64,000 nt of DNA, from assembly GCA_016704655.1 (NCBI GenBank), contig JADIZR010000007.1:1348-65347 (forward strand). Direction: 5' to 3'. A program made the translations under genes and the position numbers. The notes beneath the pieces are model-generated. The model saw only the letters and a program-made list of their open reading frames with translations. It made no database searches and was not told the origin of the DNA. This document shows positions 2,258 through 56,034 of the stretch, one piece after another. Every line of letters starts with the position of its first letter. The first letter of the stretch is position 1. This DNA comes from Pseudomonadota bacterium (GTDB lineage: Bacteria > Pseudomonadota > Gammaproteobacteria > Steroidobacterales > Steroidobacteraceae).

Positions 2258-2288
2258 CCCGCTCGATCCATTTGCAAAGACTTCGGGC

Positions 2289-20128: not shown

Positions 20129-20536
20129 ATGTTCAGAAAGGCACTCCTTGCAGCCACGGTGCTGCTCGCGGCCCCCGCCCTCACCGACACGCCGGAGTCG
20201 CTGATGCGGGGTTATGCCGAGCAGGCACGCACCACGTCGGCATCCTATGCCGGGCCGTCCCCCGCGGCGGGTCGTCGACTGTTTCACCAGCAGCCGCGCG
20301 ACTGGAGTTGCGCAACCTGCCACACGGATCAGCCCACCGCTACGGGACGCCACGCCATCACCGGCAAGGCGATCGGCCCGCTTTCACCCGTCGCAAATCC
20401 CGAGCGGCTTCGCGATGCCGCCAAGGTCGAGAAATGGTTCAAGCGCAATTGCAGCGATACGCTCGGTCGTCCGTGTACGCCTGCAGAAAAGGCCGACTTG
20501 ATCGCGTTCCTCCTGGGCGCAAGGGAAGGAGCCTGA
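20129..20536 (+). CDS. DUF1924-type monohaem periplasmic protein
   Basis: Signal peptide, a single CATCH motif, and KWFKRNCSDTLGRPCTPAEKADLIAFLL. Confidence 0.7.
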   Translation: MFRKALLAATVLLAAPALTDTPESLMRGYAEQARTTSASYAGPSPAAGRRLFHQQPRDWSCATCHTDQPTATGRHAITGKAIGPLSPVANPERLRDAAKVEKWFKRNCSDTLGRPCTPAEKADLIAFLLGAREGA

Positions 20537-20538
20537 CA

Positions 20539-21018
20539 ATGCGCACACGTTCGGGCATTCGTCGCATCGATCGGATCGTCTGGTCACTCGCAACCGTGTT
20601 TCTCGCCCATGCCGCCGTGGCGGCAGTTCCACCCGCCCAAGCCGCCAAACCCACCGCCTACGCGGAGGAGTGCGGCGCATGCCACACCGCCTATCCAACA
20701 CGACTGCTGCGGCCAGCGGATTGGGCCGTCGTGCTTGCATCGCTCGACCGTCACTTCGGTGTCGATGCATCGCTCGATAGCACGACACGTGCGGCAGTGG
20801 CGACGCAGCTGGGCGTGGATCCCGCCGTCTCCAGCGCGGCCACCGCTAAGGCAGCGCCGCGGATCACGCAGCAAGGCTGGTTCCGCGAGGAGCACGATGA
20901 AGTATCAGCGCAACAGTTTCGTTCTCCAGCCGTACGCAGCGCTGCCAACTGCAATGCGTGTCATGCCGGTGCCGACCGTGACCAGTTCGACGAGCATTCT
21001 GTCCGCATTCCGAGGTAA
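20539..21018 (+). CDS. dihaem cytochrome c
   Basis: ATG at 20539, 2 nt after the previous stop. Two CXXCH motifs (CGACH, CNACH). Typical partner of DUF1924 and cytochrome b. Confidence 0.75.
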   Translation: MRTRSGIRRIDRIVWSLATVFLAHAAVAAVPPAQAAKPTAYAEECGACHTAYPTRLLRPADWAVVLASLDRHFGVDASLDSTTRAAVATQLGVDPAVSSAATAKAAPRITQQGWFREEHDEVSAQQFRSPAVRSAANCNACHAGADRDQFDEHSVRIPR

Positions 21019-21023
21019 CGCCG

Positions 21024-21714
21024 ATGACCAGCAACACCAAGGTCTGGGACCTGCCAACCCGCATCTTTCATTGGGCGCTTGCCGCCTCGTTTGCCGGTGC
21101 CTACGTCCTCTCCGAATCGGAGCGGCTGCGCAACGTACACGTTGCGCTCGGCTACACCGTTCTCGGGCTGCTCGCGTTCCGTCTCGTGTGGGGCTTCATC
21201 GGCCCGCGGTATGCGCGATTCAGCTCGTTCGTCCACAGCCCCGTCGCGGCGTTCCGCTACCTGCGCGACGAGGTGCGAGGCTGTGCTCCGCGCTACGTCG
21301 GTCATAACCCTGCGGGCAGCTGGGCTGTCTTCGGGCTGCTCATTCTCGGCGTGGCCACCGGCGTAACCGGCTACCTCAACTTCAACGAGCAGGGCGGCGA
21401 GTCGATGGAGGACCTGCACGAGGTCTTCGCCAGCGCCTGGCTCGTGCTCGTTGGCCTGCACATTCTTGGCGTCGCCTTCAGCAGCTTGATGCAGCGCGAA
21501 AACCTCGTGCACTCGATGATCACCGGCTTCAAGCGTGGCGTTGCCGAAGGCACCGAGCCACGCAATGCCCGTGGCCTCGGGCTGGCGATGGTCGCTGCGA
21601 TTCTCGGCTTCTGGGGCTGGACCGCTACCTCCGGAGGCGTGGCGCCGGGTGCCGGACCCGGGACAGGGCGAACAATCCGAACTGGCGACAGAAAGCGAAA
21701 CCGACGACGATTGA
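21024..21714 (+). CDS. cytochrome b561-family membrane protein (PF01292-like), probable frameshift in the 3' tail
   Basis: VWDLPTRIFHWALAASF...HNPAGSWAVFGLL...LHEVFASAWLVLVGLHILGV. The annotated ORF runs to 21974 as an Arg-rich tail overlapping the response regulator by ~250 nt. In the +1 frame it ends ...GQGEQSELATESETDDD* at 21712-21714, 3 nt before the regulator ATG. Confidence 0.7.
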
Positions 21715-21717
21715 GAC

Positions 21718-22380
21718 ATGCGAATCCTGCTGGTCGAAGACGATGCATTGCTCGGCGACGCACTACAGGTCGGCCTGCGCGAGCATGGCTTCGCGGTCGA
21801 GTGGATCAGAGACGGCGCGGCAGGAGAAGCTGCGCTGGCCTCCGACGAATTCACGGCAATCGTGCTCGACCTGGGGTTGCCGCGCATGTCCGGACTCGAA
21901 CTGCTGCAGCGTGTGCGAAATCGCGGAGATCACACGCCCGTGATCATCCTCACTGCGCGAGAAGCCGTCGATGATCGCGTGCGCGGCCTCGATCTCGGCG
22001 CCGACGACTACGTCGTGAAGCCTGTCGCACTCAAGGAGCTCGCGGCCCGACTGCGAGCCGTTGCTCGTCGCGCGCAGGGCATTGCGAGTGGATCGATCAT
22101 CGTGGGCAGCCTGTCGCTGGACCTCGCCTCGCGTGCCGTAACGTTCGAAGGCAATCCAGTCGAACTGCAGCCGCGCGAGTTCGCGCTGTTGCAGGAACTG
22201 GTGTTGCGTGCGGGCCGGGTCGTCACACGCACTCAGCTGGAGACCCAGCTGTACGAATGGGACCGCAGCATCGACAGCAATGCAATCGAGGTTCACGTCC
22301 ATCATCTGCGGCGCAAGCTCGCACCCACGCTCATCCGGACAGTGCGTGGCGTTGGCTACATGATCCCGCGCGAAGACTGA
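21718..22380 (+). CDS. OmpR/PhoB-family response regulator
   Basis: MRILLVEDD...DLGLPRMSGLELL receiver domain plus a winged-helix C-terminus. Confidence 0.9.
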   Translation: MRILLVEDDALLGDALQVGLREHGFAVEWIRDGAAGEAALASDEFTAIVLDLGLPRMSGLELLQRVRNRGDHTPVIILTAREAVDDRVRGLDLGADDYVVKPVALKELAARLRAVARRAQGIASGSIIVGSLSLDLASRAVTFEGNPVELQPREFALLQELVLRAGRVVTRTQLETQLYEWDRSIDSNAIEVHVHHLRRKLAPTLIRTVRGVGYMIPRED

Positions 22381-22383
22381 AAC

Positions 22384-23737
22384 GTGCGAACTCACTCGAT
22401 CCGCCGGCATATGCTCACGCTGCTGCTACTCACGCTCACCGGCACGTGGCTGGCGTCTGCGGCCCTGACTTACCGCGAAGCGCATCGGGGCATCGATGCC
22501 TTGCTCGACGCACATCTGGCCCAGGCCGCGCGGATGCTGGTGGCGCAGGCGGGCCACGAACTCGAGGAACTCGACTTCGATGAGAATTCGACGCCCGCCG
22601 GACTTCCGCACCAAGGTTGCCTTCCAGGTGCGCGAGGCGGATGGGACGCTCATTCTTCGCTCAGCCAACGCCCCGACGACGCCGTTCGCCGGGCCGGTCA
22701 GCGGTTTCAGCGAAGCTGTGTTCGGTGACATTTTCTGGCGCGTGTATTCGGCAACCGAAGCCGCGCAGGGCGTGGTCGTGCACGTGGCGGAAGACCACGC
22801 AACGCGCGAACGGATCGCGCGACGCGTCGCCCTGAGCGCACTCGTCCCACAGCTCGTCGCACTGCCCCTGCTCGGGCTCGCGATCTGGTGGGTCGTTGGT
22901 CGTTCGCTGCGTCCGTTACGGCGGCTGGCGGAGCAACTCGCCCACCGCAGCCCCGACGATGTTCGGCCGCTGGCCGCGGGACCGATGCCCGTCGAGTTGA
23001 CGAGTCTCGCCGAACGGCTCGAGGAACTCCTGTCGCGGGTTCGTGACTCGCTCGATTCAGAACGACGGTTTACCTCGCATGCTGCCCATGAATTGCGTAC
23101 GCCGGTCTCTGCAATGCGCGCGCAGGCGGAGGTGGCGTTGGCAACCATTGACCCTGACGTCCGCGACGCGGCACTGCGTCATGGCATCGAGGCCTGCGAT
23201 CGAATGACACGGCTCGTGACGCAGCTGATGCAGCTTGCCCGTGTGGACGAAGCCGGTCACCTTGCAAGTGCGACTTCGTGCGAACTGCGTGCGATTGCGG
23301 AACGTGTGCTGGCGGACAGCGCGCCGGCAGCAATGCAGGATGGAAATTCGGTAGCGCTGGAGGCGTCGGATCCCGGGCGCGTTCTTGGCGACGGCGCATT
23401 GCTCGAGGCGCTGGTGCGTAACCTGGTCGACAACGCACTTCAACATGGCGGACCACACGGCGAGGTACGGGTGGGGCTGGTGCAGCATGACCGCCAGATC
23501 CGGCTCACCGTCGAGGACACGGGACCCGGTGTGACACCGGAAACACTCGAACGACTTGGCCGACGTTTTTACCGCGCGGCTGAAGCGACGGCCACGGGCA
23601 GCGGACTGGGGCTATCGATCGTCAAGCGGATCACGGAGTTGCACGGCGGCTGCGTGAGCTTTCGCAATGGCGATGCCGACCGTGGGCTGCGGGTCGAGGT
23701 CACGATCCCAATGCAGGGCTGCGAGCGTTCGAATTAG
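22384..23737 (+). pseudogene. sensor histidine kinase (QseC/PmrB-like) split by a 1-nt frameshift
   Basis: The N-terminal TM and sensor part (ORF 22384..22728, ...AQAGHELEELDFDE) continues in the +1 frame as FRTKVAFQVREADGTLILRSANAP... It includes the H-box FTSHAAHELRTPV and an HATPase domain (ORF 22496..23737). The frame change lies within ~22585-22606. Confidence 0.8.
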
Positions 23738-25755
23738 CTCGATCGGATGCGTGCCGCAACGGCGTCAAAGCCGCGCGCGGCTGCCGCATCGGCTGCGGCA
23801 ATCCCGTCACGGTTGCGCAGTGTCTTCTTCGCACCCGCCTGCAGCAACAGGTCGACCACGTCGCCCGCGCCTGCCTGACTCGCCAGGATCAGCGCGGTAT
23901 CGCCGAACGTGTTCTGCGCATCCAGCCCAACTCGCAATGCGACCAGCCTGCGCACGATCACGGCGTGGTTGCCGCGAGCCGCGAGCATCAGAAGTGTGTC
24001 GCCCGAGCGGCTGAGTGCCTGCACCTCGGCGCCTGCACGCAGCAGCTTGTCGAATGCCGCGTCGTTGCCGCGCGCCGCCGCGCAGGCGATGGGCGTAACG
24101 CCGTCGGCGGCCGCCGCATTCACATTGGCTCCGGCACCCAGCAGCAGCGCAAGGACCGCGGCGTCATCGCGGCACGCAGCGTGCCAAAGCGCGGTGTACC
24201 CGGTGGCATCTGTCGTTTCAGGACTCGCACCCGATCGCAGCAACAGCGACACCATGGCCGCATCGCCTCGCTGCGTCGCGAGGACCAACGACGCGTCATC
24301 GCCCTTGCCCGTGTCGGCTCTGGCTCCGTGCGCCAGCAACACCTGCACGATGCCTGCATTACCCCGGCGAACCGCGGTAGTGAAAGGCGCGCCGTCGCTG
24401 GCGCCATGCTCGTTCGGATTGGCACCGCGCTCGAGCAGCATCCGCACGATGTCCTTGCGTCCGTGACTGACGGCCACGCCCAGCGGTGTGTGGCCCGCGC
24501 GATCCGGGCGCGTCGGCGACGCGCCTGCTGCGAGCAGCACACCGACGCTGGCGGACGAAGACGCGGCGATGGCGACCTGCAGTGCTGGCTGGCCAGCGGC
24601 CGTCGTAGCCTCCGGGTCGCCGCCCCGGCCGAGCACCGATTTCAGCATGGCCGGATCGGTGCGACTTGCTGCGAGCGCCACGTCCGGCCAACCGGCATAG
24701 GCATCGCCTGCCGCAGCGCGAAGAATTGGGCCAGCCGACCTTGGGCCGGGTCCGGCGCCCGTAGTGCGCCTGCGCGCCGGTTGTGCGCCGTGCTGGACCA
24801 GGAAGCCGGTGACCGCGTCCTGTCTTGATTGCACCGAGTAATCCACGGCGCTCCAGCCGCCCGCATTACGCAACTTTGGGTCAAGGCCCGCGGCCACCAG
24901 GCGCTCGGACTGTGTGACGCGGCCACGGCGCGCCGCGTAGAGCAGAGCCGAGTTCCCGAGCGCATCCACCGCGGCAATGTCGGGTTTCGACAGCATCAGC
25001 ACTTCCAGGGCGTCCGCGCGCTCGGCCGTCGCGGCCAGCATCAAGGGTGTGATTCCCTGCGCGTCGATCGCATCGACTCGGGCGTCGTGTGCAACCAGCC
25101 AGCGCACCGATTCTGCAGCGCCCGACTCGGCTGCGTGATGCAGCACCGAACGACGGAATGCGTCGCTGGCATCTTCCGGCAGTAGCGGCCAGAGCGCGGC
25201 CAGCGTGTCGACGTCACCGCGGCGCACAGCTGCGATGGTCATCGACAAGGTCACTGCGGGTTCGGTTGCAAGGACGCGAGGATCCACTTGCAGTGGCAAC
25301 TGGCCTGCCTGCAGCAGGCGCGCCGCATCGGCGTGCCCAGCCGCCGCGGCCGTGTCGAGCCAGGTCCGTGCCGCTGATTCGTTTGCAGGCGAGTCGTACG
25401 CCGCAAGCGCTGCCAGTGCATACGCCGCGCGTGGCTCGCCCTTGGCTGCCGCGGCCTCGAAGAGAGTCCGCGCACGTTGCGAGTCCTCGCCGACGCCGAG
25501 ACCGGCCAGGTACAGGGTGCCCAACAGGTATTGCGCGCGTGAATCGCCGGCCAGCGGATCGGTCGCGAGCCGCCCGGCTGCATCCGCGAATTGCTTCAGA
25601 CGCAGCGCGCTCTTGGCCGGCTCGAGCAGGTCCGGCGCCGCGAACTTTGATGGAGTTGCGGCAACTGCCTGCACTGCGCCCAACGCACCGAACGAACACA
25701 GGAGCAGGGTGGCCAGCGCGGCGGCGCGAGCAGCTGAAGGGTCATGCCGTCCCAT
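23734..25755 (-). CDS. secreted Sel1-repeat plus ankyrin-repeat protein
   Basis: Signal peptide MGRHDPSAARAAALATLLLCSFGALGAVQAVAA. Sel1-like repeats (AQYLLGTLYLAGLGVGEDSQRARTLFEAAA) are followed by ~12 ankyrin repeats (G.T.L..AA..G....V..LL..GA). Confidence 0.8.
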   Translation of the reverse strand: MGRHDPSAARAAALATLLLCSFGALGAVQAVAATPSKFAAPDLLEPAKSALRLKQFADAAGRLATDPLAGDSRAQYLLGTLYLAGLGVGEDSQRARTLFEAAAAKGEPRAAYALAALAAYDSPANESAARTWLDTAAAAGHADAARLLQAGQLPLQVDPRVLATEPAVTLSMTIAAVRRGDVDTLAALWPLLPEDASDAFRRSVLHHAAESGAAESVRWLVAHDARVDAIDAQGITPLMLAATAERADALEVLMLSKPDIAAVDALGNSALLYAARRGRVTQSERLVAAGLDPKLRNAGGWSAVDYSVQSRQDAVTGFLVQHGAQPARRRTTGAGPGPRSAGPILRAAAGDAYAGWPDVALAASRTDPAMLKSVLGRGGDPEATTAAGQPALQVAIAASSSASVGVLLAAGASPTRPDRAGHTPLGVAVSHGRKDIVRMLLERGANPNEHGASDGAPFTTAVRRGNAGIVQVLLAHGARADTGKGDDASLVLATQRGDAAMVSLLLRSGASPETTDATGYTALWHAACRDDAAVLALLLGAGANVNAAAADGVTPIACAAARGNDAAFDKLLRAGAEVQALSRSGDTLLMLAARGNHAVIVRRLVALRVGLDAQNTFGDTALILASQAGAGDVVDLLLQAGAKKTLRNRDGIAAADAAAARGFDAVAARIRSS

Positions 25756-27051
25756 ATTTCGTCTCCACGTGAATCCCGACTCGCCGCAGGAAGTCGGAGG
25801 GCAGGATGCCGCCGGCGCTGACGATCACCGCGTCGTTCGGCAGAATCAGGTGACCGTCCTGGCTGCGCAGCAGAACCCGCTCCTGCTCGATGCGCTCGAC
25901 CTTTGACTGCAGCAGCAGTTGCAACTGTCCGGCGCGTTCGGCAGCGGCGATCCGGTCGCGGTTGCGGGGCTTGGCACGCGTGAACGCGTCGCCACGATAG
26001 GAGAGTGTGACCTGGCCGCCCGCTTCCGCGACGCTGGCAGCCGCCTCCAGGGCGCTGTCACCGCCACCCACGACCAGGACGCGCTGTCCGCGGTACTGCT
26101 CCGGGTCGATCAACCGGTAGACGACTTTGGGCAAGTCCTCGCCTGTCACGTCGAGCTTGCGTGGCGTGCCGCGCCGGCCGATCGCCAGCAGTACTTTCGC
26201 TGCCCGGTATTCCGCGAGTGAGGTCCGAACGATGAAGCCTTGCGCACCATCGCGATCGACGCTCTCGACGCGCTCACGATACCGCATGCTGCCGGCCACC
26301 CCGGTCTTGCGTTCGATATCCTGCCAGAACGCAAGCAGGTCTTCCTTGGAGGTCTGGCGAAAGCTGACCTTGCCCACCAATGGAATTTCTGCCGGTTGCG
26401 TCATCACGAGCTTGGCCCGCGGATACTGGAAGACGCTGCCGCCAAGACTCTCCTGTTCGATCGTCACGAATTGCATCTTGTGCGACTTCGCGGCAAGGCT
26501 GGCCGAAAACCCTGCGGGACCCGCACCCACGATCACGAGATCCAGTTGCCCTGGGATGGCTGTGCGCAGCTTGCGATGGATCGCGTCGACCGCCTGCCTG
26601 CCCTGCGCCAGCGCGTTGCGAATGAGGCCCATTCCCCCCAGTTCCCCCGCAACAAAGAGCCCCGGCACGGTCGACTCGAACTCCGGGCTCAGCAATGGAA
26701 TCTCCACGCCACGGCGTTCCGTGCCGAAAACAAGCGTGATCGCGTCCGCAGGACACGCGGCACGGCACGCACCGTGCCCGATGCAATCCGTCGGACTCAC
26801 CAGGTGCGCCTTGCCGTCGATCAGCCCAAGCACATGGTGTTCCGGTTGTTCCGGACAGGCTTTCACGCACGATCCGCACCCGATGCAACGGACGGGATCG
26901 ATCACGGGATGCAGGGAAGCGGGTCGATCAAGCCCGCGGCGACCGACTGCTCCCGCACGGTGCGGCTCGCATCCTCGTGTCGTCTACGCCGGACGAGGTA
27001 CCAGCCCCATATCAGTAAGAGTGGCAGCAGGTAGACGGCGAGCAACGACAT
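25742..27051 (-). CDS. membrane-anchored 2x[4Fe-4S] ferredoxin-domain / FAD-NAD(P)-binding oxidoreductase; N-terminal anchor is in another frame
   Basis: ORF 25742..26905 has CIGCGSCVKACPE and CIGHGACRAACP clusters, then VIVGAGPAGFSASLAAK and a thioredoxin-reductase-like fold. The ATG 27051 frame upstream encodes MSLLAVYLLPLLLIWGWYLVRRRRHE...AAGLIDP and shifts by -1 near GGG 26921-26923 into ASLHPVIDPVRCIGCG. Alternatively the gene simply starts at GTG 26905. Confidence 0.7.
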
Positions 27052-27900: not shown

Positions 27901-28872
27901 ATGACTGCACAACGCCTTCTCCGGGAACGGTATGACGATGTCGTCGACGAAAGCGCGCCGCGCATCACGACGCCTGCAACCGTTGACACCTCCCGCAAGA
28001 AAGTTGCCGCTCCAGGCGCGGCAGCCGCCAAGGGAGCGGCGAACCGCAGCCGGTTGCTCACGCCAGCCAGCATCTACTTCATGGCCGTCCTCGCAGCGAT
28101 CGCCTTCGGCATCAACCTGCCGACGTCCGCTTACCTCTCCCCGCAGTCCGGTCTCGGCTATGCGCTCGGAATCGCCGGCGGCAGCGCGATGTTGCTGCTG
28201 CTCCTCTATCCGGTCCGCAAGCGAATGCCGAATGCACGCTACCTCGGGTCCACGCGCGCCTGGTTCAGGCTGCACATGACGCTCGGCATCTTCGGGCCCG
28301 CGCTCATCCTGTTTCATTCGAACTTCAGCCTTGGCGCGACCAACAGCAACGTCGCGCTGGTCTGCATGCTCATCGTTTCCGGCAGCGGACTCTTCGGCCG
28401 GTACTTCTACGGTCACATCCACCAGGAACTGAATGGACGCGAAGCCACGCTCGACGAACTGCGGGAGTTCTCGAGCCGGCTGCAACTGACGTCGTCGGTG
28501 TCCTTCCTGCCTGCGCTGGCGCGGCACATCGACGCGGAACAGACCGTCATCGAGCGCCGCTTTGCGGCGACCGCGCTGCTGCTGCAACCGCTGCTGGGTG
28601 CAGCTTGGGCAATCGGCGCAAGACGTCGACTGCGGCGTGCAGTCCGTGAAGCCATTGCTGCGGGAGCCGACCGTCGTCACGACCCGACCCGCGAATCGCT
28701 GCAACTGATCGCGTATCGCTACATCGACGATCGCATCAGCGCGGCGCGGCGCGTGCTCGAGTTTCGTGCTTTCCAGAAGCTCTTCTCGCTGTGGCACGCC
28801 TTGCACCTGCCGCTCTTCGTCATGCTCATCATCGCCGGGACCGTCCATGTGGTCGCGGTACACATCTACTGA
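27901..28872 (+). CDS. polytopic membrane protein with two His-x13-His pairs (putative dihaem b-type cytochrome)
   Basis: ATG 27901 lies 2 nt after the previous TGA. About 5-6 TM helices. One helix carries RLHMTLGIFGPALILFHSNF (His and His+14). The last helix carries WHALHLPLFVMLIIAGTVHVVAVHIY (His and His+14). Confidence 0.6.
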   Translation: MTAQRLLRERYDDVVDESAPRITTPATVDTSRKKVAAPGAAAAKGAANRSRLLTPASIYFMAVLAAIAFGINLPTSAYLSPQSGLGYALGIAGGSAMLLLLLYPVRKRMPNARYLGSTRAWFRLHMTLGIFGPALILFHSNFSLGATNSNVALVCMLIVSGSGLFGRYFYGHIHQELNGREATLDELREFSSRLQLTSSVSFLPALARHIDAEQTVIERRFAATALLLQPLLGAAWAIGARRRLRRAVREAIAAGADRRHDPTRESLQLIAYRYIDDRISAARRVLEFRAFQKLFSLWHALHLPLFVMLIIAGTVHVVAVHIY

Positions 28873-28890: not shown

Positions 28891-30456
28891 ATGCCCCGCT
28901 GGCACAGCGCCTGCCGACTCCTGTTCGCGATCCTGGGCCTGACGATGTCACCGTTGAGCGCCCGAGCGGCGAACCTCGAGACGTTGCTGATGCCCGGGCC
29001 GGTCATCGCGGGTCACGCGAAATACGAACAGGAGTGCTCGCGCTGCCACGATCGCGCGGATCGTTCGCGGCAGGCGGTCCTCTGCCGCACTTGTCATGAG
29101 CCCGTTGCCGCCGATATTGCGCAACACAAAGGATTCCATGGTCGATTGCGCGGAGCAGAGGCCGCCCAGTGCGGCGCCTGCCACACCGAGCACAAGGGCC
29201 GGCCGGCCGACATCGTCAAGCTCCAGCCGGCTTCGTTCCCGCATGCCCAGACGGACTTTCCGCTGCAGGGAGCACACGCGACAGTAGCGTGCACGGCTTG
29301 CCACCAGGAAGGCCGCAAACATCGCGAAGCGGCGTCCGCGTGCGTCGAGTGTCACAAGCAGGACGACCTGCACGAGGGCAAGCTTGGCCGCGATTGCTCC
29401 AGCTGCCACGACGCCGGAGGCTGGTCACGCGTGCGGTTTGATCACGCAAAGACCCGGTTCGCGTTGACCGGCAAACATGTGCAGGCGACCTGTGCGTCCT
29501 GCCACCTGGGCAACCGGTACAAGGACACCCCAACCCAGTGCGCTGCCTGCCACGCGCCTGATGACGTCCACGGTGGCGCGCGCGGGGCCGGCTGCGCCGA
29601 CTGTCACCAGACGACCGGTTGGACCGGCACCAGGTACGACCACCTGAAGACCAGCGGATTTGCGCTCACGGGCGCGCACTCCTCGCTCGATTGCAGGACG
29701 TGTCACAAGACGTCGAATTTCAAGGACCCGTTGCCGAGGGACTGCGCGGGTTGCCACCGCAGCGACGATCCGCACGCCACCCGCTTCGGTGCAGGCTGCG
29801 AGAAGTGCCATGCCGCAAGCGGCTGGACGCCTTCGAGTTTCGATCACACCCGCGATGGCAAGTTCGAGCTGCGCGGAGCGCACGAGAAGCTGAACTGCCA
29901 TGTCTGCCACACCGGGGTAATCGCCAGCCAGAAGCTCGGCACGGAGTGTGCCGGATGCCACCGGGCGGATGACGTGCATGCGGGCAACCTGGACACCGAC
30001 TGCGCGCAGTGTCACGGCGTGGAGACGTGGCGCGGGCATCTGCAGTTCGATCACGACTTTTCGACGTACCCGCTCGTGGGGCTCCACGTCGCGGTTCCCT
30101 GCTTTGCGTGTCATCGCTCAACGTCGTTCAAGGACGCACGGCAGACGTGTGTCGACTGCCACGAGGCGGACGATCGTCACAAGGGCTCACTCGGCCGGGA
30201 CTGCGAAACATGCCATTCGGTCAACGGCTGGAACCTGTGGCAGTTCGATCACGGCAAATCCACCAAGTTCGCCCTGACGGGTGCGCACTCGAAGGTGGCC
30301 TGCGCAGGCTGTCACAAGCAGCCCGCACACCTGGCGAAGCTGTCGCAGGACTGCGCGGCGTGCCATGCCGAGGACGACGTGCACCTCGGTCAGTACGGTC
30401 GGCAATGCCAGCGCTGCCACGTGACCACGACTTTCAAGGCTGCGCGGCTGCAGTGA
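28891..30456 (+). CDS. 21-haem periplasmic c-type cytochrome built from seven c7-like triheme modules
   Basis: Signal peptide plus 21 CXXCH motifs. The recurring module is FDH..T.F.L.G.H....C..CH - ~11 aa - C..CH..DD.H.G..G..C..CH. Confidence 0.9.
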   Translation: MPRWHSACRLLFAILGLTMSPLSARAANLETLLMPGPVIAGHAKYEQECSRCHDRADRSRQAVLCRTCHEPVAADIAQHKGFHGRLRGAEAAQCGACHTEHKGRPADIVKLQPASFPHAQTDFPLQGAHATVACTACHQEGRKHREAASACVECHKQDDLHEGKLGRDCSSCHDAGGWSRVRFDHAKTRFALTGKHVQATCASCHLGNRYKDTPTQCAACHAPDDVHGGARGAGCADCHQTTGWTGTRYDHLKTSGFALTGAHSSLDCRTCHKTSNFKDPLPRDCAGCHRSDDPHATRFGAGCEKCHAASGWTPSSFDHTRDGKFELRGAHEKLNCHVCHTGVIASQKLGTECAGCHRADDVHAGNLDTDCAQCHGVETWRGHLQFDHDFSTYPLVGLHVAVPCFACHRSTSFKDARQTCVDCHEADDRHKGSLGRDCETCHSVNGWNLWQFDHGKSTKFALTGAHSKVACAGCHKQPAHLAKLSQDCAACHAEDDVHLGQYGRQCQRCHVTTTFKAARLQ

Positions 30457-30469
30457 TGGGAAGGCAACC

Positions 30470-33400
30470 ATGAAGCTGCAATGGATCTGCCGTGCACTGC
30501 TGCCCTTGCTGCTGCTGGCTGCGGGCACCGTGTCAGCCCAGGTGACCGGGCGCAACTTTGACCACCTGACGACAGGATTCGAGCTTACTGGCGCGCATCG
30601 TCTGCAGGCCTGCGAGAGCTGCCACGTCGACGCCGTGTTCGCCGGCACCCCACGAGTGTGCGCGGCGTGCCATGCACAGAGGTCGCGCATCGGAGCGACA
30701 CCGAAGCCGTCGGCTCACGTGGCCTCCACGGACAACTGCGGCGCGTGCCACACCACCTCGGGCTGGATACCGGCAGGACGATTCGATCACCTGGAAGCGC
30801 GCGGTGATTGCGCAACCTGCCATGACGGGCTGCAGGCGCAGGGCAAGCCGGCGGGCCACCTCACGACCAGCCAGGAGTGCTCGAGTTGCCACAGCAATAC
30901 GGCCTGGAGTCCCGCGAAATACAACCACTCCGGCATCACCGGCGTGTGCGCCTCCTGCCACGACGGCGTCAGAGCAACGGGGAAGCGGGCCACTCATCCG
31001 CAGACGACGAGCAGCTGCGAGTCGTGCCACACGATCGCGGCCTGGGCCCCGATCAGCCGCATTGACCACACGCAGGTCAGCGGCTCCTGCGCGTCGTGCC
31101 ATGACGGCACGTCTGCGACGCGCAAGCACGCATTGCATGTACCGACTACCGCGACGTGCGACACCTGCCACGTGACAGTCGCGTGGCAGCCAGCCAGCTT
31201 CGCTCACGACGGTATCGTCGACGGCTGCGCCAGCTGCCATGACGGGGCGCGGGCCACCGGCACCGGACCGCGTCACATCAAGGCGACGAACACCTGCGTG
31301 GCCTGTCATTCGATGACGGCATGGCAGCCGGCAACGCGCGTGGACCACGCCAACGTGCTGGGCAGCTGCTCGACCTGCCACGACGGACTCGCGGCCAGCG
31401 GACAGCCGGCCAATCACATTCCCACGTCGGCGGAATGCGACAGCTGCCATGCGACCAACGCCTGGACTCCCGCCAGGTTCGATCACACCGGGATCGCCAC
31501 CAACTGCGCCTCCTGTCACGACGGCACCCGCGCCACAGGCAAGAGTCCGACCCACATCAATACCTCGACGACCTGCGAGTCATGTCACGTCATCGCGGCC
31601 TGGCAACCCGCGTCGCGTGTCGATCATGCCCAGGTGCTCGGCAGCTGCGTCTCCTGTCACGATGGCACCGTTGCAACCGGCAAGAACGCCACGCACATCC
31701 TGTCCGACAATGCCTGCGAGAGTTGCCACACGACCGTCCAGTGGCAGCCCGCCAACTTTTCACACACCGGGCTGACGGAAACCTGCTCAGCCTGCCACGA
31801 CGGTACTCGGGCCACCGGCAAGAGCACGACGCACATCATCTCGAGTACCTCCTGTGGCGCCTGTCACGCGACGTTCTCGTGGCGCCCGGTCACGCAGGTC
31901 GACCACACACAGGTGAGCGGCAGCTGCGCCTCGTGCCACAACGGCACGACGGCCACCGGCAAGAACGCGGGTCACATCGCCTCCAGCACGGCCTGCGCTG
32001 CCTGCCATGCCACGCTGGCATGGAAGCCCGTCACAAGCGTGGATCATGCGCAGGTCACCGGCGCGTGCTTCTCCTGCCACGATGGCACCCTGGCCACCGG
32101 CAAGCCGTCCGCTCACATTCCGAGCGACAACTCCTGCGACAACTGCCATTCGCCGCTGGCATGGCAGCCAGCGCGCTTCGACCACACGGGCATCACGGTC
32201 AACTGCGCCAACTGTCACGACGGCATCAAGTCTCAGGGCAAGCCGACGACGCACATAACCAGCAGCAGCACGTGCGAGTCCTGTCACGCCGTGGCGGCCT
32301 GGAAGCCGGCAACGAGCGTCGACCACACCCAGGTGACGGGAACCTGCGCCAGTTGCCACGACGGCGCCAGGGCGACCGGCAAGGGCGTTAACCACATCCC
32401 GACCAGCGGCGAATGCGGCACGTGCCACGCCACGATCGCGTGGCAGCCGGCAACGTTCTCGCACACTGGTATTACCAGCGGTTGTGCCAGCTGCCACGAC
32501 GGGATCAAGGCGCCGGGCAAAAACGCCACGCACCTGTTCACGTCATCGACCTGCGAAGCCTGCCACTCCGTGACGACCTGGAAGCCCGCGACCCGCGTCG
32601 ACCACGCGCAGGTGCAGGGTTCGTGTTCGAACTGCCACAACAACATCAAGGCGACGGGCAAACCGGCGACGCACGTCGTTACGACGTCCGAATGCAGCAT
32701 GTGCCACGGCACGCAGGCCTGGAAGCCAGCGACGGGCTTCACGCACGACGGCATCACGGCCGCATGCGCGACCTGCCACAACGGCGTGAACGCGACGGGC
32801 AAGAACACCAGTCACCTGCAGACGAGCAATACCTGCGAGTCCTGCCATACCCCCACTGGCTGGAAGCCGGCGGCGAAGGTGGACCACACACAGGTCATCG
32901 GCACCTGCTTCTCGTGCCACAACGGCACGCTTGCGACCGGCAAGAACTCGGGTCACATCGCAAGTGACAACGCGTGCGACAGCTGCCACCAGTCGACGGC
33001 GTGGAAGCCGACGATCCGGGTCGATCACGCGCACGTCACCGGAACGTGTTCCAGCTGCCACGATGGCGTGCAGGCGGCGGGCAAGCCCACCACGCACCTG
33101 CCGACGACAGCCGAGTGCGGCAGCTGTCATTCAACCCTGGCCTGGACACCGGCGAAGGTGGATCACACCAGCATCACGAACTGCAAGGGTTGCCACAACG
33201 GCTCCAGCGCGACGGGCCCGTCGACCAGCCACATGACCTTCCCGGTCAACAGCTTCGACTGCAACCAGTGCCACACCACGACGGCCTGGTCGCCGAACAC
33301 GTTCAAGCACCGCGTGGGTGGCGGCTACCCGGGCGATCATCGTGTGGCGCTGACCTGCAGGAGCTGTCACACGACCGGCACGGATGCCGCCACCTGGCGC

Positions 33401-33610
33401 ACGCCGGCCTACAAACCCGACTGCGCAGGTTGCCATTCCAGCAATTTCAAGCCCGATCCGCACACCAAGTACGGCAACGTGAAGTACACCGTCAGTGAAC
33501 TGCGTAACTGCTCGGGAGCGTGCCACACCTATACGGACTCCACGCTCACGAAGATCTTGAAGAGCCGCGCCGGTCCGGAACATCGCATCACGGACACGGA
33601 ACTTCACTGA
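30470..33610 (+). CDS. giant multihaem c-type cytochrome: 41 CXXCH plus one CX3CH
   Basis: Sec signal MKLQWICRALLPLLLLAAGTVSAQ. There are 41 CXXCH motifs at ~23-aa spacing plus a terminal CSGACH. Consensus repeat is C.SCHDG..ATGK...H..T...C..CH...AW.PA..VDH..V.G. Confidence 0.9.
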   Translation: MKLQWICRALLPLLLLAAGTVSAQVTGRNFDHLTTGFELTGAHRLQACESCHVDAVFAGTPRVCAACHAQRSRIGATPKPSAHVASTDNCGACHTTSGWIPAGRFDHLEARGDCATCHDGLQAQGKPAGHLTTSQECSSCHSNTAWSPAKYNHSGITGVCASCHDGVRATGKRATHPQTTSSCESCHTIAAWAPISRIDHTQVSGSCASCHDGTSATRKHALHVPTTATCDTCHVTVAWQPASFAHDGIVDGCASCHDGARATGTGPRHIKATNTCVACHSMTAWQPATRVDHANVLGSCSTCHDGLAASGQPANHIPTSAECDSCHATNAWTPARFDHTGIATNCASCHDGTRATGKSPTHINTSTTCESCHVIAAWQPASRVDHAQVLGSCVSCHDGTVATGKNATHILSDNACESCHTTVQWQPANFSHTGLTETCSACHDGTRATGKSTTHIISSTSCGACHATFSWRPVTQVDHTQVSGSCASCHNGTTATGKNAGHIASSTACAACHATLAWKPVTSVDHAQVTGACFSCHDGTLATGKPSAHIPSDNSCDNCHSPLAWQPARFDHTGITVNCANCHDGIKSQGKPTTHITSSSTCESCHAVAAWKPATSVDHTQVTGTCASCHDGARATGKGVNHIPTSGECGTCHATIAWQPATFSHTGITSGCASCHDGIKAPGKNATHLFTSSTCEACHSVTTWKPATRVDHAQVQGSCSNCHNNIKATGKPATHVVTTSECSMCHGTQAWKPATGFTHDGITAACATCHNGVNATGKNTSHLQTSNTCESCHTPTGWKPAAKVDHTQVIGTCFSCHNGTLATGKNSGHIASDNACDSCHQSTAWKPTIRVDHAHVTGTCSSCHDGVQAAGKPTTHLPTTAECGSCHSTLAWTPAKVDHTSITNCKGCHNGSSATGPSTSHMTFPVNSFDCNQCHTTTAWSPNTFKHRVGGGYPGDHRVALTCRSCHTTGTDAATWRTPAYKPDCAGCHSSNFKPDPHTKYGNVKYTVSELRNCSGACHTYTDSTLTKILKSRAGPEHRITDTELH
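30690..33240 (+). repeat. in-frame tandem repeats (~138-141 bp, ~18 copies) inside the 41-haem cytochrome gene
   Basis: Periodic TGC..TGCCACGACGGC / GCCTGGCAGCC / GTCGA(C/T)CAC blocks. Copies are clearly diverged at the nucleotide level. VDH..V.G.C and F.HTGI...C subtypes partly alternate, giving a ~280-bp super-repeat. Confidence 0.85.
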
Positions 33611-35986
33611 TGCGCCCAGGTATTCGACTGCTGCTCGCCGCCAGCGCCGTCCTGGCCAACCTGGCGGCCACTCCGCTCCGGGCACAGGGCCGGATCGTCG
33701 AAGACGTCGTGGCGAGCGAGCAACGCGGCTACGTGTCCGTTACGCTGCTCTTCAGCTGTTCGATGCGCTACCTGTCGCACACGCCGGCTACCGATGGCGA
33801 AGCATTGCAGGTCCGCTTCTCGGCGGGCCCGGATTGTGGCCGGACATCTGCCTCGGAACCGCAGCCGCTGCTGGCCGGCGCGGCGGGTTTCGTGCGCTCG
33901 GTCGACGTCGTGCGACCGTTCGGCTCGGAGGTCCAGGTCCGGATCGGCTGGTCGAAGCCCGAAACGTTCGTGCTGACGCCTTCGATCGACGGGCGCCTGT
34001 TGCGAGTCAGGCTGCTGCGCACCGAGACACCGCAGGTTACGGTGCAGGAAATGCCCCAGGGCACCTCCACGTACGCCGTAAACCTGGCCTCGTCGACCAC
34101 CCCTCACACCCGATGCACTCGCAGCCGCCGCAAAGGTCGCGGGCACGCGCACCTACGTTTCGGCGACCGTCGTCGACGAGCAGCGCTGGTACCGCCTGCG
34201 GGCCGGGCCTTTCGTCAACGAGGCGGCAGCCAGGCAGGCACTGGCCAATTCGCGCAGCGAATTCCCGAAAGCCTGGATCGCGATTTCGGATGACGACACG
34301 CTGAACGAGATCGGCACTCCTTCGGGCGTGGCGACCGTGCGGTCAACCGCCCCGCAGGTCAACGCCTCGATGACGCCGGATGAAATCAAGGGAACCCTGG
34401 CCCAGGCCAAAGTTGCGTTCCGCCACAAGGATTACGCCACGGCGATCCCGCTGCTGACGCAGATCACGCAGCAACCCGAGTTTCCGCAACGGGCCGAAGC
34501 GCAGGAAATGCTCGCTCTTGCGCGCGAACGCAGCGGCCAGGTCGCTCACGCCAAGGCCGAATACGAGGACTATCTGCAGCGGTATCCAACCGGCGACGGC
34601 CCCACGCGCGTGCGCAAGCGGCTGCAGGCCCTGGCCTGGGCCAGCCGCCCTGGTCGCAGTGGCGCGGCAGATAGCGACCATGACGAATCCCCGTGGCGAG
34701 TCTACGGCGGCTTTTCGCAGATTTATCGCCAGGACCAGAGTCACCTCGAGAGCGGTCTCGCCGTCAGCGACCAGACGACGCAGAACGCCTTGCTCAGCGA
34801 CGTGAGTCTCGTTGCGCGTCGCCACGGCGAACGCTTCGACTTCACCACACGCGCGAGCGCGGGTTACAGCTACGACATGCTTGCCGACGGGCCGGGAAGC
34901 CAATCTCGAGTGTCGATGTTGTTTGCCGAGTTCGCCGACCGCATTGCAGGCTGGTACGCCCGCCTCGGCCGCCAGGCCGGCGGCTCGGCCGGACTCATGG
35001 GAACGTTCGACGGGATGCAGGCGGGGTACCAGCTGTGGCCCCGGCTGCGCGTCAATGGCTTCTTCGGCTTCCCGGTGGATTCGACACGCGAAGGGCCGGA
35101 CAGCGAGCGCAGGTTCGTCGGCATCTCTGCTGACGTCGGCACGCTCGCGAACGCCTGGGATCTCTCGTTCTATGCCGTCGACCAGCAGTATTCCGGCGTG
35201 ACGGACCGGCAGGCCGTCGGCACCGAGGTGCGGTACTTCCGGCCCGGCATCACGCTGGTCGGACTCGCGGATTTCGACATCCACTACAGCACGCTCAATA
35301 CCGTGCTGCTGCTGGGCACGTTCGCGCTGCCTGCGCGCTGGACGCTGAACCTGAACCTCGATCACCGCAAGAGTCCAGGCCTGTCGACGCGCAATGCCAT
35401 GATTGGGCAGCCAGTGCGCCGGTTCGACGAACTGTTCGGCCTGTACACACCCCAGGAGATCGAGCAACTTGCGCTCGACCGCACGTCGGAGTCGACGATG
35501 TACTCGGCGGGCGTATCGCGACCCTTCGGCGAGCGATGGCAGTGGTCGCTCGATGCGTCGACCATGACTCTCGGCTCGACGCGCGAATCGGGCGGGGTGC
35601 CCGCCACGCCGTCGTCGGGAACGGACACCGCGGTCTCGACGCAGGCCATGGGCTACGGATTGTTCGGCCGCGGCGACGTCACGTCACTGGGCCTGCAGTA
35701 CCAGACGGGCGAGAGCGCGCAGATGCTTTCGCTCGGCGTCGGCGCCCAGCTGCCTGTCGGCGAGCGTTGGCGCGTCGGCCCCCGGCTGCGCCTGGATCAA
35801 CGCAAGCTCGAGAGCGACCGGTCGACATCGCTCGTGTATTCACCGGCGCTGCGGGCGGAGATGCGCGGCAAGCACCTGACGTTCGAGGTGGAGGGCGGGG
35901 CCGAGTTCGGATCGCGCGACCTCGGCACGAGCTCCGAGGACACGTCGCGTTACTATTTCAGCCTTGGCTATCGCTATGACTTCTAG
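33610..35986 (+). CDS. outer-membrane protein: signal peptide, N-domain, SPOR domain, TPR-like region and beta-barrel; a single ORF only after correcting a 1-nt frameshift at ~34100
   Basis: ATG 33610 overlaps the TGA of the cytochrome gene. Frame 1 reads MRPGIRLLLAASAVLANLAATPLRAQG...STYAVNLASSTT, then turns Arg-rich. From the C4 run at 34100-34103 the +1 frame reads PLTPDALAAAAKVAGTRTYVSATVVDEQRWYRLRAGPFVNEAAARQALANSRSEFPKAWIA (SPOR-like). It runs without a stop into ORF 34328..35986, which has a TPR-like segment and then amphipathic beta strands ending YYFSLGYRYDF. Confidence 0.65.
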
Positions 35987-36560
35987 CGGTCATTCCGGCG
36001 GCGATGGGACACAGGTCTGCAGGACCGTCTCGGTCGCGCTGGCAGCTGGAACATTGCTCGCTGCAATCCTCATGGCAGGCTGCGCCAGCGAGCAACCGGC
36101 CGGTCCGCGCGAATACCTCGACGAACGCACTGCTGCGACGATCACGGTGGCTGGCGAACCCATGGTCTTCGCCTGCGATCGCCCCGAACTGGGTGTGAAC
36201 GCGCGCGACTACGTCACACTGACCGCTGTGGACGTCAACACGTCCGGCAGGCATGCCACGCATCTCGTGGGTTACTCCTGGTCGACGCTGGACAAGCGCG
36301 CCATCAAGGAAAGCGACAGCGACTACGAAGTCATTGCCGATGATCGAACGCTGTCGCTGCAGCCGATGCCGGACGGATTCCGCGCGATCGGCGTCAACGA
36401 ACCACCGATTCCAGTCCCTTCACGCGGCGCCCTGCCGCTGACGGCGCCGATCACCCGGGATCAGCTGCTGTTTCTGCGGGACACCTCTGGCGCGCACATC
36501 GTGCGAACGCGCGACGGGGTCACGGAACGGTTCGAACTCTGGCGCGGCCCCGGCCACTGA
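35976..36560 (+). CDS. lipoprotein of unknown function
   Basis: ATG 35976 overlaps the end of the barrel gene. Lipobox AAILMAGCASE. No recognisable domain. Confidence 0.55.
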   Translation: MTSSGHSGGDGTQVCRTVSVALAAGTLLAAILMAGCASEQPAGPREYLDERTAATITVAGEPMVFACDRPELGVNARDYVTLTAVDVNTSGRHATHLVGYSWSTLDKRAIKESDSDYEVIADDRTLSLQPMPDGFRAIGVNEPPIPVPSRGALPLTAPITRDQLLFLRDTSGAHIVRTRDGVTERFELWRGPGH

Positions 36561-54720: not shown

Positions 54721-56034
54721 ATGGATATCGATGCACTGACACTCGCGCGGCTGCAGTTCGCCTTCACGATCAGCTTCCACATCATCTTCCCGGCCATCTC
54801 GATCGGGCTGGCCAGCTATCTCGCCGTGCTTGAGGGCCTCTGGCTCTTCACCGGCCGCGTCGTCTTCCTCGACCTCTTCAATTACTGGAAGAAGATCTTC
54901 GCAGTGGCATTCGGCATGGGCGTCGTGTCGGGCATCGTCATGAGCTACCAGTTCGGCACCAACTGGAGCGTGTTCTCCGACAAGGCCGGTCCGGTGATCG
55001 GGCCGCTGATGGGCTACGAGGTACTGACCGCTTTCTTCCTGGAAGCGGGATTCCTCGGCGTCATGCTTTTCGGCCTGTCGCGCGTGGGGCCGCGACTGCA
55101 CTTCCTGGCGACGCTGATGGTCGCGCTCGGCACGTTCATTTCCGCGTTCTGGATTCTCTCGGTCAACAGCTGGATGCAGACGCCGGCCGGCTACGCGATC
55201 AACGAAGTCGGCCAGTTCGTTCCGGCGGACTGGGTCGCAGTCATCTTCAACCCATCCTTCCCCTACCGGCTCGTGCACATGCTCCTGGCCGCGTACCTCA
55301 GCACGGCGTTCATCGTCGGTGGCACGGGTGCGCTGCATCTGTTGCGCGATGCGACGCTGCCTGCCTCGCGCATCATGTTTTCGATGGCGATGTGGATGGC
55401 CGCAATCGTCGCGCCGCTGCAGATAGTCGCCGGCGACTTGCACGGGCTCAACACGCTGGAGCACCAGCCCGCCAAGGTTGCGGCAATGGAAGGTCACTTC
55501 GAAACGCACGCGGGCGCGCCGCTCATCCTGTTCGGCTGGCCGGACATGGAGCAGGAGCGGACACGGTACGCAGTCGAGGTGCCGAAGCTTGGCAGCCTGA
55601 TCCTCACCCACGACTGGAACGGCACCGTGCGCGGGCTCAAGGAATGGCCACGCGAGGATCGCCCGAACGCGACCATCGTGTTCTGGAGCTTCCGCGTGAT
55701 GGTCGGGGCCGGACTTGCGATGCTCGCGGTCGGTGCGTGGAGCCTGGCGCTGCGGGCGCGAAAACGCCTGTACGACCAGCCGTGGCTGCTGCGCGCGTCA
55801 GTCGCCTTGAGCCCCATCGGCATCGTTGCCGTGATTGCAGGCTGGATCACCACCGAGGTCGGCCGACAGCCCTACACCGTTTACGGGTTACTGCGAACCA
55901 CGGACAGCGCATCGTCGATCGATGCCGCGGCAGTGGGCGCTTCGCTCGCCGCATTTGCAATCGTGTACTTCGCGGTCTTCGGTGCCGGTGCGTTCTACAT
56001 GCTGCGCCTGATGGGCAAGGAGCCGCGCGCATGA
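54721..56034 (+). CDS. cydA: cytochrome bd-type ubiquinol oxidase subunit I (short, CIO-like)
   Basis: LARLQFAFTISFHIIFPAISIGLA...GVVSGIVMSYQFGTNWS. Confidence 0.9.
   Translation: MDIDALTLARLQFAFTISFHIIFPAISIGLASYLAVLEGLWLFTGRVVFLDLFNYWKKIFAVAFGMGVVSGIVMSYQFGTNWSVFSDKAGPVIGPLMGYEVLTAFFLEAGFLGVMLFGLSRVGPRLHFLATLMVALGTFISAFWILSVNSWMQTPAGYAINEVGQFVPADWVAVIFNPSFPYRLVHMLLAAYLSTAFIVGGTGALHLLRDATLPASRIMFSMAMWMAAIVAPLQIVAGDLHGLNTLEHQPAKVAAMEGHFETHAGAPLILFGWPDMEQERTRYAVEVPKLGSLILTHDWNGTVRGLKEWPREDRPNATIVFWSFRVMVGAGLAMLAVGAWSLALRARKRLYDQPWLLRASVALSPIGIVAVIAGWITTEVGRQPYTVYGLLRTTDSASSIDAAAVGASLAAFAIVYFAVFGAGAFYMLRLMGKEPRA

Follow-up and report, generated by a model that had tools for sequence, protein, structure and literature searches.

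The window analysed here (the whole stretch of 64,000 nucleotides from contig JADIZR010000007.1 of the Steroidobacteraceae assembly GCA_016704655.1) encodes a 1046-aa multihaem cytochrome (MHC), which probably represents the large cytochrome in a conduit of the PCC3 type and works as a haem wire. The identity of this large cytochrome is settled by its genomic context. The PCC3 type, a porin-cytochrome gene cluster proposed to conduct electrons through the bacterial cell envelope, has been described by He, Barco, Emerson & Roden (2017) as comprising a porin, an MHC labelled 'extracellular', another in the periplasm and a protein of the inner membrane (IMP) (PMC5566968). The 'extracellular' MHC has a median of 34 haems and a maximum of 85, a composition rich in T, S, A and G, a low ratio of amino acids to haem and internal repeats; the periplasmic MHC has a median of 21 haems, with 21, 24 or 27 of them in three-haem repeats of ~66 aa; and the IMP, of ~300 aa, carries the motif SGXXG and two WX3HX13H motifs on separate transmembrane (TM) helices (PMC5566968). 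In Sideroxydans lithotrophicus ES-1 the genes Slit_1446-1449 follow in the order IMP, periplasmic MHC, extracellular MHC and porin (PMC11429942).

All of these features were found at the locus in the window, namely the IMP signature, a 21-haem partner built of seven three-haem repeats, a large repeat-built MHC, the adjacent gene for an outer-membrane barrel and a gene order (27901, 28891, 30470, 33610) equal to that of Slit_1446-1449. Ferribacterium limneticum, a cultured betaproteobacterium that we take to belong to the Rhodocyclales, possesses a cluster with 24- and 60-haem cytochromes that is homologous in every component (IMP, E = 2e-33; small MHC, 4e-127; large MHC, 6e-153; barrel, 3e-56). 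Dechloromonas sp. JJ (Rhodocyclales) was listed as a PCC3 carrier by He et al. (PMC5566968). The large cytochrome in the window is an ordinary member of its type, with haem count, register and composition within the published ranges: its T-, S-, A- and G-rich chain with ~25 aa per haem and a 23/24-aa (47-aa) register shares these properties with published PCC3 proteins, such as the Riftia-symbiont protein (23/24-aa register) and that of L. cholodnii (47-aa repeat) in the published supplement (PMC5566968). The novelty implied in a preliminary description of this DNA, made from the sequence alone, does not hold, as the cluster type, the register, the ratio of amino acids to haem and relatives with 85 haems were published in 2017 (PMC5566968); the operon context was overlooked there, although the 21-haem neighbour lies immediately upstream. 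No report of PCC3 in Steroidobacteraceae was found in the literature searched.

Architecture of the Large Cytochrome

By exact counting, the large cytochrome contains 41 CXXCH motifs and one CX3CH site (CSGACH at residue 1014), in agreement with the preliminary description, while the composition-matched shuffles of the protein give a mean of 0.5 and a maximum of 5 CXXCH. Just 3 of its 85 Cys residues lie outside the CXXCH motifs, 47 of the 88 His residues are found outside them, and there are only 4 Met. The protein has 24.9 aa per haem and 43.7% of T+S+A+G, and the CXXCH motifs are spaced by 23 or 24 aa from haem 3 through haem 37. The motif count revealed no CXXCK or other open-coordination site in the protein, and the Pfam scan no non-haem catalytic domain.

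The array between the two caps (Table 1) is built of units, each consisting of an A module (CxSCHDGxxATGKxxxH, 23 aa) and then a B module, the latter in two subtypes of 24 aa (AWxPAxxVDHxQVxGx) and 23 aa (F.HTGI) that largely alternate, giving a 93-aa four-haem super-repeat across much of the array. The two subtypes and a two-haem core of about 46 aa had been recognised in the preliminary description, where about 18 repeats were given; 17 regular units of 45-47 aa are present, and 18 is right if the degenerate flanking modules are counted. The claim of exactly four His per unit stands for 15 of the 17 units, the other two having five. The mean unit-to-unit identity is 50% (range 36-70%) for the protein and 60% (range 50-71%) for the DNA of the 17 units, and no pair of the four-haem blocks exceeds 67% of DNA identity. 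Tandem Repeats Finder reported no array on the DNA, because the repeats are too diverged. When 32 homologues are aligned, invariance is essentially confined to the CXXCH residues and one extra His per module; since this His is invariant and only 4 Met are present, the sequences support bis-His ligation throughout the large cytochrome, including the two bis-His haems per unit proposed earlier.

Family Models and Structure Searches

The whole protein is recognised by the Pfam models Cytochrome_C7 (PF14522; 168.2 bits, cutoff 24.8) and Paired_CXXCH_1 (PF09699; 79.6 bits, cutoff 20.6), and four blocks of 93-94 aa tested singly also score above both thresholds (30.1-31.4 and 22.6-27.3 bits, respectively). 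None of the NCBIfam models reaches its cutoff on the large cytochrome: the scores are 158.6 bits over 8 partial stretches for MtrA/DmsE (TIGR03508; cutoff 192.2), 66.5 bits for OmcA/MtrC (TIGR03507; cutoff 209.3) and 36.0 bits for the Geobacter nanowire c7 triheme (TIGR04257; cutoff 40). The comparison with the paired-CXXCH and c7 families, which had been proposed in the preliminary description, places the repeat within the two Pfam families and below the cutoff of the Geobacter model. Membership of the MtrA/MtrC families was rejected by the sub-cutoff scores, the 42 haems and the missing lipobox, and a polymer of c7 domains of the GSU1996 type by the sub-cutoff score and by the two-haem units with four His and no conserved Met.

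In the PDB, neither the sequence of the whole protein nor a profile of the 17 units detected a solved relative, the matches being marginal (HmcA, E = 4.7e-05; others, E >= 0.025). The AlphaFold2 model of the full-length protein, based on an alignment of 32 sequences, is unusable (mean pLDDT 45, pTM 0.22).

Conservation and Selection

Ten independent assemblies of one Steroidobacteraceae species encode the large cytochrome with 1046 aa, 41 CXXCH and ~99% identity to the window. They derive from several wastewater metagenome projects and several assemblers and include two metagenome-assembled genomes (MAGs) of NCBI, and the operon is present in all of them; for the IMP, a 98%-identical homologue is found in Steroidobacteraceae MAGs. 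The ratio of nonsynonymous to synonymous substitution rates (dN/dS) of the large cytochrome is 0.15-0.21 against five same-length orthologues of 83-88% identity, and the neighbouring genes give similar values. The array is neither an assembly artefact nor a recent product of slippage; it is old and maintained, because its blocks are diverged, dN/dS is low and the length is the same in the ten assemblies, which bears out the view taken in the preliminary description. In the initial homologue search with the repetitive query, the best among the matches listed had 45-50% identity; this is not evidence of isolation, as orthologues of 83-99% identity exist.

Compared with the conspecific locus L003 (99.2% identity over 20,973 bp), the window contains six single-base indels, mostly in runs of G or C. 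The indels at 21656, 22590-22594, 26921 and 34101-34104 break the genes for cytochrome b561, a histidine kinase, the Fe-S flavoprotein and the SPOR-TPR-barrel protein, while both cytochrome genes are free of indels. The six indels are probably errors of the assembly consensus and not real pseudogenes.

Gene Cluster around the Large Cytochrome

Table 1. Coordinates (window positions) of the large cytochrome gene, its parts and the genes of the cluster.
Feature	Coordinates	Strand	Remarks
Large multihaem cytochrome	30470..33610	+	1046 aa; 41 CXXCH and 1 CX3CH; the PCC3 'extracellular' MHC
Sec-type signal peptide, without lipobox	30470..30538	+	MKLQWICRALLPLLLLAAGTVSA before the cleavage site, QV after it; read from the sequence; putative cleavage site
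N-terminal cap, haems 1-3	30539..30808	+	Irregular spacing of 16, 26, 24; kept across homologues
Array of 17 two-haem units (45-47 aa), haems 4-37	30809..33181	+	Residues 114-904
C-terminal cap, haems 38-42 including CSGACH	33182..33607	+	Conservation within the protein is highest in the last 62 aa
Membrane-anchored CcmH/CycH/NrfG-like TPR protein, 213 aa	27257..27898	+	Pfam TPR_CcmH_CycH below gathering cutoff; weak NrfG match
IMP, 323 aa, putative di-haem-b electron carrier	27901..28872	+	Two WX3HX13H motifs and GSGLFG
21-haem cytochrome, 521 aa, Sec signal peptide	28891..30456	+	Seven three-haem repeats of ~67 aa; the PCC3 'periplasmic' MHC
Outer-membrane barrel protein, 792 aa where intact	33610..35986	+	Split in the window by two missing bases at ~34101-34104
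Small lipoprotein, ~194 aa, lipobox LMAG/C	35976..36560	+	No family match; start codon uncertain
TM-anchored Fe-S flavoprotein, 436 aa where intact	25742..27051	-	Two [4Fe-4S] and YpdA/TrxR-like FAD-NAD(P)H; frameshifted in the window at ~26921
Secreted ankyrin/Sel1-repeat protein, 673 aa	23734..25755	-	Ank repeats, signal peptide; conserved beside the cluster

The genes on the forward strand are tightly packed from the TPR gene on, with gaps of 2, 18 and 13 nt and then an overlap of 1 nt, in which the stop codon of the large cytochrome overlaps the start codon of the barrel protein (TGATG, 33608-33612) and which suggests translational coupling of the two. The Fe-S flavoprotein and the ankyrin protein are transcribed divergently from the cluster, and the scans for promoters and terminators at the locus gave matches at chance level.

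The motifs WFRLH..H, GSGLFG and WHALH..H of the IMP are invariant in 17 homologues of 50-98% identity; its hydropathy indicates 4 clear TM segments and a first His-bearing helix, the PCC3 definition being five TM helices. In the 21-haem cytochrome, the CXXCH motifs are spaced as 7x(16-17, 18, 32-33). The barrel protein has a signal peptide and comprises an N-terminal beta-sandwich, a SPOR domain, TPR repeats and, at the C terminus, a beta-barrel of ~22 strands. Its intact orthologues have 790-796 aa, and one of them, P0241 (792 aa), is 100% identical over the window's open reading frame (ORF) E. The AlphaFold2 model of P0241 (pLDDT 73 overall, mostly ~75-90 in the barrel) has ~22 strands and is matched by Foldseek with a probability of 1.0 to outer-membrane barrels, the top ones being the FimD/PapC ushers and the 18-strand Occ/MOMP porins; the fold match of the modelled barrel is generic and not specific to MtrB. 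The CcmH-like TPR protein is, judging from its sequence, probably a dedicated apocytochrome chaperone.

Other redox-related genes are found in the window. Beside the cluster (20129-23737, forward strand) lies a set encoding a DUF1924 protein, a dihaem cytochrome (DHC), cytochrome b561, a response regulator and a histidine kinase, which also accompanies the Ferribacterium limneticum cluster (L092:16673-20884); among the gammaproteobacterial loci, just 8-10 of 60 have it within 10 kb. The set may serve as a dedicated regulator that senses redox state. Another multihaem cytochrome, with 760 aa and unrelated to the large one (83-2362, reverse strand), shows Cytochrome_C554, c552-like and Paired_CXXCH_1 matches and carries a fused C-terminal TPR region. 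A gene for cytochrome bd oxidase subunit I (54721-56031, forward strand) is located ~20 kb downstream of the cluster. No type II secretion or ccm genes are present among the annotated ORFs of the window.

Survey of Related Loci

More than 2,000 homologues exist for each of the large cytochrome and the IMP, and a relative of the IMP is encoded in 262 of 318 candidate stretches from species-representative genomes. With the single-copy IMP as an anchor, 80 loci from such genomes were compared, mostly of Steroidobacteraceae or unclassified Gammaproteobacteria MAGs; one locus (L001) was left out owing to confusing gene calls, including a fused product of 1444 aa. Of the 52 loci that can be read cleanly, 47 have a partner cytochrome with 21 haems. 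In the large cytochrome, 22-62 haems are found across the related loci, the 42 haems of the window being mid-range, in a survey of haem number that the preliminary description had proposed. One further locus (L091:4909-13403; CAWCYX010000012.1, MAG MFD09671.bin.1.115) contains, downstream of its 21-haem partner, an open-ended ORF of 2831 aa running to the end of the locus with at least 87 haem motifs, more than the 85 haems given as the maximum by He et al. (2017).

The ends of the protein are conserved, with a median identity of 66% for the N-terminal cap in 79 loci and of 75% for the C-terminal tail in 51 loci (tblastn), while the distance from cap to cap ranges from ~640 to 2,380 aa. The distances cluster at ~1021, ~1396 and ~1488 aa, with increments of 16 and 20 haems, each a whole number of four-haem super-repeats of 93 aa. 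In two loci (L018 and L021, with an IMP 77-80% identical to that of the window), the large cytochrome has 62 haems with the same cap spacing and one extra internal block of 20 haems, itself diverged, with at most 74% of DNA identity between blocks. Since the partner is fixed at 21 haems and the large MHC is variable, the partner would span a fixed gap, the periplasm, which the large MHC would not; the contrast of the fixed partner and the variable length favours, short of proof, placing the large MHC at the surface or outside the cell.

The accessory genes are conserved in the 60 non-redundant loci: Fe-S flavoprotein in 60, ankyrin/Sel1 protein in 59, CcmH-like TPR protein in 55 and lipoprotein in 53 of them. 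The Fe-S flavoprotein is present in Ferribacterium as well. Its linkage is only partly new, as a similar one was noted in a 2026 paper, in which a ferredoxin-NADP reductase gene lies near 7 of 11 similar clusters (PMC13264449).

In one Danish wastewater MAG (AalE_18-Q3-R2-46_BAT3C.357), two IMP copies were found on different contigs (L013 and L041), with 96% and 87% identity to that of the window, so that this genome would contain two PCC3 clusters, as Sideroxydans reportedly does. The cytochrome ORFs of both loci are fragmented, probably by long-read frameshifts.

Comparison with Other Conduits

The locus differs from the published PCC3 clusters, with which it shares the four components, their order, the IMP signature and the partner of seven ~66-aa triheme repeats, in its Steroidobacteraceae host from wastewater or activated sludge, in an N-terminal beta-sandwich and a peptidoglycan-binding SPOR domain of the barrel protein, and in the unusual regularity of the array; moreover, the genes for the Fe-S flavoprotein, the ankyrin protein, the CcmH-like TPR protein and the lipoprotein are conserved here alongside the four published ones. 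The MtrCAB and MtoAB systems of Shewanella and Sideroxydans follow the same logic of a periplasmic haem wire in an outer-membrane barrel and an outer bis-His cytochrome. However, against 10 haems in each cytochrome of those systems there are 21 and 42 here, the outer of the two is no lipoprotein, SPOR and TPR parts go with a barrel of ~22 strands, and the IMP is a putative b-haem protein and not a CymA/NapC.

The polymers of c7 domains in Geobacter (dodecahaem of the GSU1996 type) and the Paired_CXXCH_1 proteins are likewise one-polypeptide chains of tandem minimal haem modules. In the GSU1996-type proteins, though, the unit is a three-haem c7 with one His-Met haem, whereas here it has two haems, all bis-His, in 46-47 aa and another genomic context. 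An extended chain of stacked haems, tens of nanometres long outside the cell as proposed here, is also known from the OmcS, OmcE and OmcZ filaments; these are non-covalent polymers of subunits with 4-8 haems, while here the length would reside in one polypeptide and evolve by the repeat number. In the PDB searches, the sequence similarity to the solved filament subunits was not better than E~0.06.

Proposed Mechanism and Direction of Electron Flow

From what is established on multihaem cytochromes, the CXXCH sites would be loaded by the Ccm system, and modules of ~24 aa with a conserved distal His would pack low-spin haems closely into a chain that conducts electrons. For the haem loading, shape, docking, location and direction of flow of the large cytochrome in the window, we infer the following scheme. 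The protein would leave the cytoplasm via Sec and receive about 42 c-type haems, for which the CcmH-like TPR chaperone may help. Each module of 23/24 aa would wrap one bis-His haem, resulting in a chain of close low-spin haems with almost no other fold, and one of the caps would dock on the 22-strand SPOR-TPR barrel and/or on the 21-haem partner. The ten-haem MtrA is ~100 Å long (PMC5566968), and the 42-haem array, if linear and scaling like MtrA, would be an electron wire of ~30-40 nm. The rod of stacked haems imagined in the preliminary description agrees with the published AlphaFold2 models of PCC3 cytochromes, which are called 'long and mostly linear' (Hoover et al. 2023; PMC9900912). The electrons would start from the membrane-anchored Fe-S flavoprotein and/or the quinone pool, enter the di-haem-b IMP and pass, through the fixed-length 21-haem cytochrome across the periplasm and the barrel, to the 42-haem wire. 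The extracellular location of the large MHC is somewhat favoured over the other options. The outward flow of electrons, in which extracellular acceptors such as Fe(III), Mn(IV) or humics would be reduced, can be given only a tentative preference, to which we lean because the flavoprotein of the NAD(P)H type, facing the cytoplasm, is universally linked to an IMP that is like the b-haem proteins of ferric reductases and NOX.

Several points weigh against the reading of the large cytochrome as such a wire. The AlphaFold2 model is poor, and the linearity and length of the wire are consequently borrowed from the literature. The likeness to the PCC3 proteins of the strains ES-1 and SP-6 was judged via published descriptions, with the Ferribacterium homology as a surrogate. 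The protein has no lipobox and the window no type II secretion genes, so that its surface exposure is unproven. The frameshifts of the barrel and flavoprotein genes, if real, would make the copy in the window non-functional. In the proteome of the strain ES-1, the cyt-c_e subunit was not detected, and the function of PCC3 has been called 'functionally unverified', with no experiment in any organism. It was foreseen in the preliminary description that the repeat might prove to be a common, characterised array with a known role: half of this applies, as the array is frequent and already described while its role is still hypothetical.

The same PCC3 conduit might run inward, according to the original iron-oxidiser hypothesis, and bring electrons from Fe(II), Fe(II) minerals or reduced solids to the quinone pool for litho- or mixotrophy. 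The literature on iron oxidisers leans to uptake: it was in Fe(II) oxidisers that PCC3 first came to light, and many Gallionellaceae carry it. The PCC3 IMP gene is upregulated in iron-oxidising cells of Sideroxydans CL21, and the gene for cytochrome bd oxidase lies in the window. However, most PCC3 carriers are not known metal oxidisers (PMC5566968), the majority of PCC carriers among karst MAGs have been assessed as electron-exporting heterotrophs, the window showed neither carbon-fixation nor Cyc2-type genes, and the universally linked flavoprotein of the NAD(P)H type fits export more simply than an uphill import. Inward flow is considered, on balance, rather unlikely.

A still less probable alternative is that the 42-haem protein stays in the periplasm as a capacitor or relay and the 21-haem protein threads the barrel. 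The ordinary Sec signal, the missing lipobox and the lack of secretion genes nearby would suit such a protein, the role of a capacitor has already been suggested in the literature for haem-rich PCC3 MHCs, and storage would tolerate the variable length. Nevertheless, the conserved caps suggest docking at two defined ends and not bulk storage, and the TGATG overlap and the adjacency of the MHC and barrel genes in related loci suggest a stoichiometric complex; the published localisation, by software prediction alone, puts the subunit outside the cell (PMC5566968).

That the multihaem protein is catalytic, for instance as an oxidoreductase of nitrite, hydroxylamine, sulfite or tetrathionate, is very improbable, for the weak sub-threshold matches to the NrfH and HmcA models are opposed by NCBIfam scores far below the cutoffs, a distal His in each module and the absence, in the motif count and the Pfam scan, of an open-coordination site and a catalytic domain. 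That the array is collapsed or expanded by assembly, as the preliminary description had allowed for, or that the ORF is a non-functional relic, is effectively refuted: the six single-base indels do make the consensus of the window imperfect, but they spare both cytochrome genes, the ten assemblies agree on the length and the motif count, the repeats, with 50-71% DNA identity, are too diverged to mis-assemble, and dN/dS is 0.15-0.21.

Significance

The PCC3 clusters are widespread, and the survey sharpens testable ideas on them; the large cytochrome in itself, an ordinary member, is no discovery. The locus adds a clean and well-replicated example from the abundant Steroidobacteraceae of wastewater, a group not usually considered electroactive. 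Some value is added by the extension of the hosts to Steroidobacteraceae and wastewater, by the SPOR domain of the barrel protein, by accessory genes that are conserved and by the pattern of a fixed ruler and a variable wire. By analogy, the flavoprotein and the b-haem IMP with its HX13H pattern resemble a split NOX. A speculative and rather doubtful extension of the wire reading is that PCC3 works as an export system like a split NOX or ferric reductase, in which the flavoprotein would oxidise NAD(P)H and pass electrons through the IMP and the 21-haem 'ruler' to a surface wire of heritable and selectable length, with 22 to at least 87 haems between the docking caps and changing in block steps, of which +16 and +20 are the clearest. 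Were this the case, PCC3 would circumvent the quinone pool and represent a one-polypeptide alternative to the polymerised cytochrome nanowires, common in heterotrophic Gammaproteobacteria of soil and wastewater.

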